Assembly (NCBI RefSeq): GCF_003018255.1
Contig: NZ_CP027440.1
Reading direction: 5' to 3' (one strand)
Source of the DNA: Escherichia coli
GTDB taxonomy: Bacteria; Pseudomonadota; Gammaproteobacteria; Enterobacterales; Enterobacteriaceae
Length of the DNA: 64,000 bases
Every line of letters begins with the position of its first letter. Positions within the stretch are counted from its first letter, which is position 1. The position numbers and the translations under genes were made by a program. The notes under the pieces were generated by a model that was given only the letters and a program-made list of their open reading frames with translations, did not search any database and was not told where the DNA came from. Below, in pieces: positions 6,853 through 47,437 of the stretch.

Positions 6853-6985
6853 TTTGCTCCTGCCATAACGTGAAGAAGCAATGACCTGGTGGTCCGTGAC
6901 TTCCCTACGCTGGCATTATCCAGATCAGGTGATACGGGTATTTCTCAGCCTTCACAAAGAAGGGCACCCCGAGTCGTTTGGTTGC
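6853..6985 (-). promoter_or_regulatory. TPP (THI-box) riboswitch in the thiM leader
   Basis: Minus-strand sequence contains CTGAGAAATACCCGTATCACCTGATCTGGATAATGCCAGCGTAGGGAAGTCACGG, which matches the classical E. coli thiM TPP aptamer, immediately 5' of thiM. Confidence 0.85.
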
Positions 6986-25516: not shown

Positions 25517-25870
25517 ATGATCGTGCAAAAAGAGCTGGTTGCTATTTACGATTATGAGGTCCCTGTACCTGAAGATCCGTTTTCCTTCAGACTTGAGATC
25601 CATAAATGCTCTGAATTATTTACAGGTTCCGTCTATCGACTGGAGCGATTCCGGCTACGTCCAACATTTCATCAACGTGATCGAGAAGATGCTGACCCGC
25701 TAATAAATGATGCGTTGATTTATATAAGAGATGAGTGTATTGATGAGCGGAAATTACGAGGTGAATCACCTGAAACTGTAATAGCAATTTTTAATCGTAA
25801 ACTACAGAATATATTCAACCAACTAATAGAATATTACTTTATTAAAGGGGGAAGCGGTTTTCCCCCTTAG
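25517..25870 (+). CDS. yehK: Small uncharacterised protein
   Basis: 117-aa ORF on the track; true start uncertain (I recall the K-12 product as shorter); stop codon lies inside the hairpin that begins the first zor repeat. Confidence 0.5.
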   Translation: MIVQKELVAIYDYEVPVPEDPFSFRLEIHKCSELFTGSVYRLERFRLRPTFHQRDREDADPLINDALIYIRDECIDERKLRGESPETVIAIFNRKLQNIFNQLIEYYFIKGGSGFPP

Positions 25871-25889
25871 TTGCGTTTCAATTTGCCCA

Positions 25890-25979
25890 TTACTTCAACA
25901 AATCAATCAACCGTAACAGAGCCACTAATAGCTCCAGTACAGCAATGAGCACGGTTAACTTTTGTGTCAGCGTGTCCAT
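25890..25979 (-). CDS. zorO: Type I toxin small hydrophobic peptide, 29 aa (ZorO-like)
   Basis: Minus-strand ATG..TAA encodes MDTLTQKLTVLIAVLELLVALLRLIDLLK; AAGGAG SD 5 nt upstream; long 5' UTR; flanking hairpin terminator; too short for the ORF track. Confidence 0.7.
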   Translation of the reverse strand: MDTLTQKLTVLIAVLELLVALLRLIDLLK

Positions 25980-26217
25980 CCGCTCTCCTTATTAAGGAGC
26001 GCAACACCAGCACCTTACCCTTACACTGCCTGTCGACACTGGTTTACGTTTGTTGAGTCGCCATGTTGCACTCCGGATCAGAGCACTACCTGCGGCACCA
26101 CCCGTCCGGTAGCCAGGACTTGAAATGGGTTCGATCCGGCGCAACTTCCCAACAGTCAGGATTATAAATCTCATTATCTTAATTGCAACACGGTCCAGCG
26201 GTGGTTATAATTCGTTC

Positions 26218-26300
26218 GTTGAGATGCCATGTTGCACTATCAGTAACTTAACATCAAAGTAGTAAATAAAAGAACCTGCCTCACCAGCAGGTTCTTTTAT
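26218..26300 (+). ncRNA. orzO: Divergent antitoxin sRNA (OrzO-like), about 80 nt
   Basis: Consensus-like promoter TTGCAA-17-TATAAT (26183..26211), then a transcript ending at hairpin gaacctgc-ctcaccagc-gcaggttc plus T-run; 5' end gttgagatgccatgttgcact is complementary to the toxin 5' UTR (26053..26073). Confidence 0.6.
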
Positions 26301-26497
26301 TTTCTGCGATCTACTTTCCAGATATTTTTCGCCAATAGCCCACCATAAATATTCACATCCCGGCCAAATAGTACGTTGATTATAAAATCGATGAATTTAT
26401 AAATAAAAATGAGTTATATGATGAATTAATAAAAACAGTAATCATTTTATTAAAGGGGGAAACGGTATTCCCCCTTAGATGCGTTTCAATTTGCCCG

Positions 26498-26587
26498 TTA
26501 CTTCAACAAATCAATCAACCGTAACAGAGCCACTAATAGCTCCAGTACAGCAATGAGCACGGTTAACTTTTGTGTCAGCGTGTCCAT
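26498..26587 (-). CDS. zorP: Type I toxin small hydrophobic peptide, 29 aa, second copy (ZorP-like)
   Basis: Coding sequence identical to copy 1 (same 29-aa peptide), same SD and terminator hairpin. Confidence 0.7.
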   Translation of the reverse strand: MDTLTQKLTVLIAVLELLVALLRLIDLLK

Positions 26588-26825
26588 CCGCTCTCCTTAT
26601 TAAGGAGCGCAACACCAGCACCTTACCCTTACACTGCCTGTCGATACTGGTTTACGTATGTTGGTACGAAACGTTGCTCTCCGGATCAGGGCACCGCCTG
26701 CGGCACCACCCGTCCAGCAGCCAGGACTTAAAATTGGTCCGATCCGGCACAACCTCCCAACGGGCAGGATTATAAATCTCATTCACTGAATTGCAATGGA
26801 GTGTGGATATGGTTATAATTTATTC

Positions 26826-26908
26826 GTTGGTACGAAATGTTGCACAATCAGCAAGTTAGCGTCATTGTAGTAAATAAAAGAACCTGCCTCACCAGCAGGT
26901 TTTTTTAT
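26826..26908 (+). ncRNA. orzP: Divergent antitoxin sRNA, second copy (OrzP-like)
   Basis: Promoter TTGCAA-17-TATAAT (26791..26819); 5' segment gttggtacgaaatgttgcaca is complementary to the copy-2 toxin UTR (26661..26681); same terminator hairpin. Confidence 0.6.
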
Positions 26909-27017
26909 TTACTGTGATCTGCTTTCCAGATATTTTTCGCTCAAACAACTAATGCGGCAAACATTTATTGCGCGTAAAATATCGTTTATTTCATTAATAC
27001 ATTTCAGGGATGAATAT

Positions 27018-47264: not shown

Positions 47265-47437
47265 GATGAGCATTCAGATAGTGGTTCACGCGCACGGGTT
47301 GCGCACCGCCGGAGTAAGGATTTACTGAGGCTAGCGACGCCATCATAACGAGCAAAAAGTGCGATCGTCAAAGAAGAATCGTGAGGAAATGCTGCATTGC
47401 TGACATTTACGCCAGCAATGCAGCGCAAAAGAACTTT

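Follow-up and report, generated by a model that had tools for sequence, protein, structure and literature searches.

The palindrome immediately upstream of the start codon at position 25979 is, with a probability of roughly 90%, the ribosome binding site (RBS) stem of a zor toxin mRNA, a stem that persists across the mRNA isoforms and lies downstream of an EAP region that is freed by processing. The locus is the zorO-orzO/zorP-orzP type I toxin-antitoxin locus of E. coli. The hairpin and its sequestration of the RBS are already known from the experimentally studied zorO/orzO locus and are not new: the sequestration of the RBS, the fact that it survives processing and the standby-site model are all found in papers of 2014-2017, with an extension in 2024, and they carry little weight here as a discovery. 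The practical value of the present analysis lies in annotation, as RefSeq lacks the toxin ORFs and the regulatory RNA elements of this locus and there is no Pfam or NCBIfam model. In addition, the comparative analysis gives modest independent support to the published structure, with compensatory changes in the helix between the 5' end and the EAP region, and with a Shine-Dalgarno (SD) hairpin that is invariant outside its loop. The window in which the locus was analysed is the whole stretch of 64,000 nucleotides, and the features found in it are given in Table 1.

The zor/orz locus between yehK and yehL

The zorO-orzO locus was first described in E. coli O157:H7 EDL933 by Wen et al. (NAR 2014; PMC3919570). 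Overproduction of Zor is toxic, and for EDL933 zorO-orzO a rescue by the cognate Orz through RNase III was demonstrated (PMC3919570). Two copies of the module are present in the window, as units of a 608-bp tandem repeat that are 92-94% identical. Their genomic position is between yehK and yehL: a database record identical to this region carries yehI, a yehK-like ORF, a gap and yehL, and the same yehK/yehL arrangement was found in EDL933-type and other strains. Both copies encode the same peptide, MDTLTQKLTVLIAVLELLVALLRLIDLLK, which is identical to the ZorO of the yehK-proximal ORF in the EDL933-derived strain WS4202. With the EDL933 locus they have in common the yehK-yehL site, the 29-aa toxin, the promoters, the 174-nt UTR and the position of the RBS in a stem at +164..+169 (PMC3919570, PMC5397157). 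The yehL-proximal neighbour copy of EDL933 carries the published T3S change of ZorP, whereas both copies in this strain encode the ZorO peptide. A further difference is that the zorO-type UTR of this strain is located on the yehL side, while the other copy has a different Orz-target variant together with a matching Orz.

The yehL-proximal copy (copy B, unit 26453..26918) has the UTR and the Orz of the EDL933 zorO type, and 3 of 309 nt differ from EDL933 zorO. The yehK-proximal copy (copy A, unit 25845..26310) has its own target/Orz variant, with CAUGGCGACUCAAC in the mRNA, and was found at an identity of at least 99% in 209 records. Relative to EDL933 zorO, on which the published experiments were performed, its UTR has about 25 differences within the first 117 nt and none from +118 to the start codon. 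In EDL933 it is zorO that lies next to yehK and zorP that lies next to yehL.

The zor mRNA sequence could be found in 3399 of 5426 complete E. coli genomes. Outside E. coli, searching species-representative genomes with a degenerate coding pattern revealed zor only in three other Escherichia species, two more matches being spurious, and the search of the plasmid collection returned only chromosomal-like E. coli matches. For the peptide MDTLTQKLTVLIAVLELLVALLRLIDLLK, no Pfam or NCBIfam family was matched, and the toxin ORF is unannotated in all E. coli records among the matches listed. In the RefSeq records that were examined, the toxin ORFs and the Orz sRNAs are both without annotation, the feature at their position being 'none' or an overlapping yehK-like ORF.

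The published UTR length of 174 nt was applied to copy A, which therefore gives a transcription start site (TSS) at G26153, an RBS at +164..+169 and the same numbering as in the literature (PMC5397157). For this strain, the TSS and the processing site are inferred. The TTGCAA/TATAAT hexamers of both zor and both orz genes were the only four sigma-70-like promoters in the region 25800..27000, and they are those published. The palindromic -35 element TTGCAA is common to the two genes of each divergent zor/orz pair (26183..26188 and 26791..26796), with a spacer of 16 nt from this element to the zor -10 and of 17 nt to the orz -10. On the yehK side, the yehK-like ORF (25517..25870, plus strand, 117 aa) is annotated as a hypothetical protein. 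This ORF runs into the stem-loop that ends zor copy A, so that the two convergent genes share one bidirectional terminator.

Each of the Orz sRNAs is divergent from one toxin gene, and both match the Rfam family OrzO-P (RF02083, gathering score 60 bits). A weak match of Orz to the Rfam family ohsC_RNA (35 bits) was below the gathering score of that family. For Orz/zor pairs, a complementarity of at least 15 continuous nt, or of 17 nt with one mismatch, situated about 60 nt upstream of the RBS has been published (PMC11264685), and the 5' ends of both Orz sRNAs show such complementarity to the zor 5' UTR of their own copy. The cognate duplex of copy A (-37.6 kcal/mol, at +72..+103) consists of 21 nt with one mismatch and one G.U pair, and that of copy B (-34.0 kcal/mol) consists of 18 continuous nt ending at +103. 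Non-cognate duplexes are clearly weaker (-25.0 and -23.4 kcal/mol), which is consistent with the absence of cross-talk reported in the literature. The earlier note had suggested for this site a type I toxin mRNA with a long structured UTR, and this was recovered in the form of a 174-nt UTR, Rfam OrzO-P antitoxins and a ZorO-identical ORF.

Table 1. Positions of the features of the two zor/orz copies in the window; numbers with a plus sign refer to the zor mRNA.
Feature	Position	Strand	Details
SD-sequestering hairpin, copy A	25985..25999	- (mRNA)	CTCCTTATTAAGGAG; presence checked on the + strand
Anti-SD CUCCUU, copy A	25999..25994	-	+155..+160
Hairpin loop AAU, copy A	25993..25991	-	
SD AAGGAG, copy A	25990..25985	-	+164..+169
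Extended hairpin, copy A	25981..26003	-	pairs U151-G173, G152-C172 and C153-G171 beyond the G154.A170 mismatch
SD hairpin, copy B	26593..26607	-	identical to copy A; exact second CTCCTTATTAAGGAG, 608 bp away
Helix U (predicted)	26000..26048	-	+106..+154; abuts the SD hairpin without a gap
EAP region, putative standby site	26052..26081	-	+73..+102; Orz target 26050..26070 (PMC5397157)
5'-terminal 28 nt removed by processing in the published system	26126..26153	-	pairs with the EAP region (PMC5397157)
5' UTR, zor copy A	25980..26153	-	174 nt, matches the published length; TSS G26153 assigned by homology
zor promoter, copy A	-35 TTGCAA 26188..26183; -10 TATAAT 26166..26161	-	
zor toxin ORF, copy A	25979..25890	-	29 aa, MDTLTQKLTVLIAVLELLVALLRLIDLLK
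zor toxin ORF, copy B	26587..26498	-	same 29-aa peptide
zor TSS, copy B (inferred)	26761	-	
Orz sRNA, copy A	26218..26303	+	Rfam RF02083 at 26225..26298, 90.2 bits
Orz promoter, copy A	-35 TTGCAA 26183..26188; -10 TATAAT 26206..26211	+	
Orz sRNA, copy B	26826..26911	+	Rfam RF02083 at 26833..26906, 88.9 bits
Stem-loop terminator, 3' end of zor copy A	25845..25868	.	common to the convergent yehK-like ORF

Folding and conservation of the SD hairpin

Around the start codon of copy A (AUG at 25979), the mRNA reads GCG-CUCCUU-AAU-AAGGAG-AGCGG-AUG. The hairpin has a perfect 6-bp stem and a 3-nt loop, its 3' arm is the SD AAGGAG, and a spacer of 5 nt leads to the AUG. The mRNA sequence and the folds agree with what had been read from the letters before, namely an SD opposite its anti-SD in a short hairpin 5 nt before the ATG; only the position of the palindrome, noted as 25984..25998, had to be shifted by one base to 25985..25999. 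The predicted free energy is -4.9 kcal/mol for the 15-mer and -10.1 kcal/mol for the 22-mer, and that of the duplex between the SD and the 3' end of the 16S rRNA is -9.3 kcal/mol.

The hairpin is part of the minimum free energy (MFE) structure of the local segment as well as of the full-length mRNA and of the 5'-processed isoform delta-28, and it was also found in the MFE structure of 15 of the 16 distinct homologues when each was folded separately. The RBS AAGGAG (+164..+169) is thereby predicted to be in a stem in full-length and delta-28 mRNA. In copy B and EDL933 zorO, all six SD bases but the loop-proximal A164 pair with the anti-SD at a probability of 0.94-0.98, and A164 does so at 0.64-0.67; the values for copy B alone are 0.95-0.98 and 0.66. 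In copy A the probability ranges from 0.45 to 0.75. The cost of opening the SD, defined as the ensemble free-energy cost of forcing it single-stranded, was 6.4 kcal/mol for the full-length mRNA and 6.5 kcal/mol for delta-28 in EDL933 zorO, 2.9 and 2.8 kcal/mol in copy A, and 6.5 and 4.4 kcal/mol in copy B, respectively. For EDL933 zorO and copy A, processing is thus predicted to leave the SD lock unchanged, a prediction that matches the published probing; copy B is a partial exception. The weaker predicted sequestration in copy A (2.9 vs 6.4 kcal/mol) could point to tandem copies that are tuned to different levels of basal expression.

An alternative conformer, in which an upstream UAAGGG pairs with the anti-SD sequence UCCUUA and frees the SD, was considered and rejected for the zorO-type copies, where its local free energy is -15.2 vs -28.0 kcal/mol. 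For copy A, where the two values (-21.0 vs -24.0) lie only 3 kcal/mol apart, the exclusion of the conformer is less clear.

None of the nine pairs of the extended hairpin varies among 16 distinct sequences, which come from, among others, CFT073, ST131 and three other Escherichia species and also include two paralogues on islands with an identity of about 79%. Variation is confined to the loop, which is AAU in most sequences, AA in others and UCAU in the island paralogues. Because the stem never varies, no covariation can be obtained for this hairpin, and the conservation of the stem could partly reflect low divergence and the need to keep the SD. The restriction of changes to the loop in a paralogue diverged by 20% is suggestive support for the stem, resting on two or three events. 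The exact 47-nt segment was the best match in 2596 of 3397 zor-positive records. The deletion of one loop nucleotide (AAU to AA) is common and typical of ST131-like strains, e.g. strain 4993. It accounts for most of the approximately 24% of zor-positive records without the exact 47-nt segment, and gives a 5-bp stem with a 4-nt loop (-4.5 vs -4.9 kcal/mol) in which the SD is still predicted to be paired.

Upstream of the SD hairpin, the RNAalifold consensus pairs +1..+22 with +74..+102, coinciding with the published EAP. In this helix 97% of the cells were paired and five pairs were changed on both sides, a number that was reached by none of 500 shuffles, while slid controls gave at most two. 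All of these compensatory changes were contributed by two related island sequences, so that the number of independent events is small. Between this helix and the SD hairpin lies the predicted helix U, in which one pair is compensatory (A-U to U-A) and several are changed on one side, from G.U to G-C. Its loop is an invariant stretch of 20 nt, GACAGGCAGUGUAAGGGUAA, in which UAAGG repeats resembling an SD occur in tandem, some 30 nt away from the real SD, and the loop sequence includes UAAGGGUAAGG. The module formed by helix U and the SD hairpin (+106..+173) is more conserved than the ORF, even in the island paralogues with about 79% identity. From these models, the SD hairpin might be seen as the 3' half of a two-helix module, with the loop of helix U as a second, RBS-proximal docking site that would hand the 30S subunit to the breathing SD, a suggestion which we consider rather unlikely.

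Published experiments, mechanism and alternative readings

The study of Wen, Harp and Fozo (NAR 2017) began from a predicted stem holding the zorO RBS (PMC5397157). Probing with RNase T1 and lead(II) showed the RBS (+164..+169) to be in a stem in full-length and delta-28 mRNA, and no structural difference between the two could be detected for the RBS and its flanks (PMC5397157). The natural 5'-processed isoform delta-28 is hypertoxic and better translated than full-length mRNA, which is itself translated in vitro with lower efficiency (PMC5397157). Upon processing, the region +73..+102, named EAP ("exposed after processing"), becomes single-stranded and is regarded as a putative ribosome standby site, and translation is nearly abolished in delta-82, in which the EAP region is truncated (PMC5397157). 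When the partner strand of the RBS was mutated in delta-82, translation rose well above wild type and toxicity was regained, and OrzO was largely ineffective once the strand pairing with the RBS had been mutated (PMC5397157). Translation is inhibited by OrzO, whose pairing site is at the 3' end of the EAP region (PMC5397157), and OrzO also triggers RNase III cleavage (PMC3919570). The zor UTR has no AUG-initiated leader ORF (PMC5397157). A survey of 2439 loci from 2024 found the RBS AAGGAG conserved in 99.8% and identified, within the EAP region, a GGAG-like motif on which full toxicity depends. The strand that pairs with the RBS in the published work would correspond to the adjacent CUCCUU; this identity rests on folding, because the text of PMC5397157 prints no hairpin sequence.

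Structure probing and hairpin-disrupting mutations, both put forward as checks in the earlier note, were therefore already in the literature, with the RBS found in a stem in full-length mRNA in the one case and with translation and toxicity restored in the other (PMC5397157). The view that the full-length mRNA is inert holds in so far as this mRNA is poorly translated, but translation in vitro shows that inert is too strong a word (PMC5397157). The proposal that processing or refolding frees the SD is contradicted by the RBS stem, which is unchanged in delta-28 (PMC5397157), and by a predicted opening cost that stays the same in EDL933 zorO and copy A.

In the best-supported mechanism, the hairpin persists in every mRNA isoform and lowers direct binding of the 30S subunit, by which basal toxin synthesis is kept low. 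With the anti-SD only 3 nt upstream of the SD, the hairpin can form once transcription has passed the SD, and translation during transcription is probably prevented by it. Removal of the hairpin is not required for translation. In the primary transcript, the first 22-28 nt or so pair with +74..+102 and thereby sequester the EAP region, and delta-28 processing frees it. Binding of ribosomes to EAP as a standby site is proposed, and a 30S subunit pre-loaded there could capture the SD when the weak hairpin breathes. The divergent Orz pairs with the exposed EAP, blocks standby binding and triggers RNase III cleavage.

A different role for the hairpin would be that of the switch itself, with a full-length mRNA that is inert until 5' processing or refolding melts the stem and exposes the SD. 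The higher toxicity and better translation of delta-28 compared to full-length mRNA (PMC5397157) would be in line with this, as would copy B, where delta-28 processing lowers the SD-opening cost in the prediction from 6.5 to 4.4 kcal/mol and the pairing predicted for the start codon from 0.9 to 0.5-0.6. Such a melting of the stem is nevertheless very improbable, since it is largely refuted by the published probing, in which the RBS and its flanks did not differ between full-length mRNA and delta-28, and full-length mRNA is translated in vitro (PMC5397157). Moreover, the opening cost is unchanged in EDL933 zorO and copy A, and the hairpin is present in the MFE structures of both isoforms. Even less credit can be given to a chance palindrome, i.e. 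an SD that happens to lie beside its complement without regulatory consequence, although the stem is short (6 bp, -4.9 kcal/mol), is AU-rich towards the loop and shows no covariation. An AGGAG followed by ATG after 4-9 nt occurs at 14 sites in the window, and a CTCCT located 3-9 nt upstream of it was found only in both zor copies, which count as one event because both stem from one 608-bp tandem duplication; at least one site with this configuration was present in 3% of shuffled windows (mean 0.03). The complete 15-mer CTCCTTATTAAGGAG was absent from 100 dinucleotide shuffles of the window. A chance origin is opposed by the mutation of the RBS partner strand, which lifted translation well above wild type in the delta-82 background (PMC5397157), by the preservation of both arms in the paralogues of about 79% identity, with all three variants observed across the homologues falling in the loop, and by the extended stem, whose -10.1 kcal/mol is comparable to the -9.3 kcal/mol of the SD:16S duplex.

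Being a near-perfect DNA palindrome, the element is present on both strands, and it might in principle act at the level of DNA as an operator for a dimeric regulator, or on the plus strand as a terminator of the convergent yehK-like transcript. Of all the readings considered, this one deserves the least belief. On the plus strand there is no T-run after the palindrome, the terminator scan was negative there, and the terminator on the yehK side lies at 25845..25868. As for an operator, the palindrome belongs to the transcribed UTR, with the zor promoter 160-170 bp upstream of it; a regulator that binds there is not known, and the palindrome is explained by the data on the RNA.

Related systems and an island-borne paralogue

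The paradigm for standby sites, tisB/istR-1, resembles zor in having a divergent antitoxin and an RBS that is held in a stem in primary and processed mRNA alike, and in both systems 5' processing exposes an upstream single-stranded standby region that is the target of the antitoxin. For zor, the sequestration of an upstream region by the 5' end, as in tisB, was found in the predicted structure, and the processing itself is taken from the literature. The systems differ in that full-length zorO still supports translation and the primary (+1) mRNA of tisB is inert in this respect (PMC5397157). According to PMC7708055, tisB needs a 5' pseudoknot and protein S1; tisB and zor show no sequence homology.

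The pairs dinQ/agrB and shoB/ohsC share with zor the long 5' UTRs, a 5'-processed active isoform and an antitoxin that binds far upstream of the RBS. In dinQ, as described in PMC5066626, processing switches between mutually exclusive structures and alters translation initiation, whereas the SD hairpin of zor is local and unchanged. In hok/sok of plasmid R1 and aapA1/IsoA1 of Helicobacter pylori, folding also hides the toxin SD and uncouples translation from transcription. The hok mRNA differs by its 3' processing and its translational coupling to mok, the zor UTR having no AUG leader ORF. Activation by 3' processing is also known for aapA1.

A diverged zor/orz-like module was observed on an integrase island beside tRNA-Asn in E. 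coli G4/9 (NZ_CP060073.1, ~1830956-1831270) and in E. coli D7. The island of G4/9 also carries a gene for an RNA-directed DNA polymerase. The module is about 79% identical to the zor of the window and encodes the toxin MDMLTRKLIVLIAVLELLLALLRLIDLLK; its Orz target differs entirely, reading AAUACAAUCCUAGCAGA, and recurs in the sRNA transcribed divergently. The promoters and the arms of the SD hairpin are the same, the loop being UCAU, and the module was found in 26 of 5426 genomes. In E. coli MSB1_4I, the zor mRNA is cut short by an IS1A insertion about 128 nt into the UTR, and the insertion has taken the place of the yehK side of the locus.

No tRNA genes are present in the window. Two unrelated Rfam matches above the gathering score were recorded in it, a TPP riboswitch at 6885..6981 (minus strand, 71 bits) and a Peptidase-S11 motif at 47269..47349 (minus strand, 73 bits).
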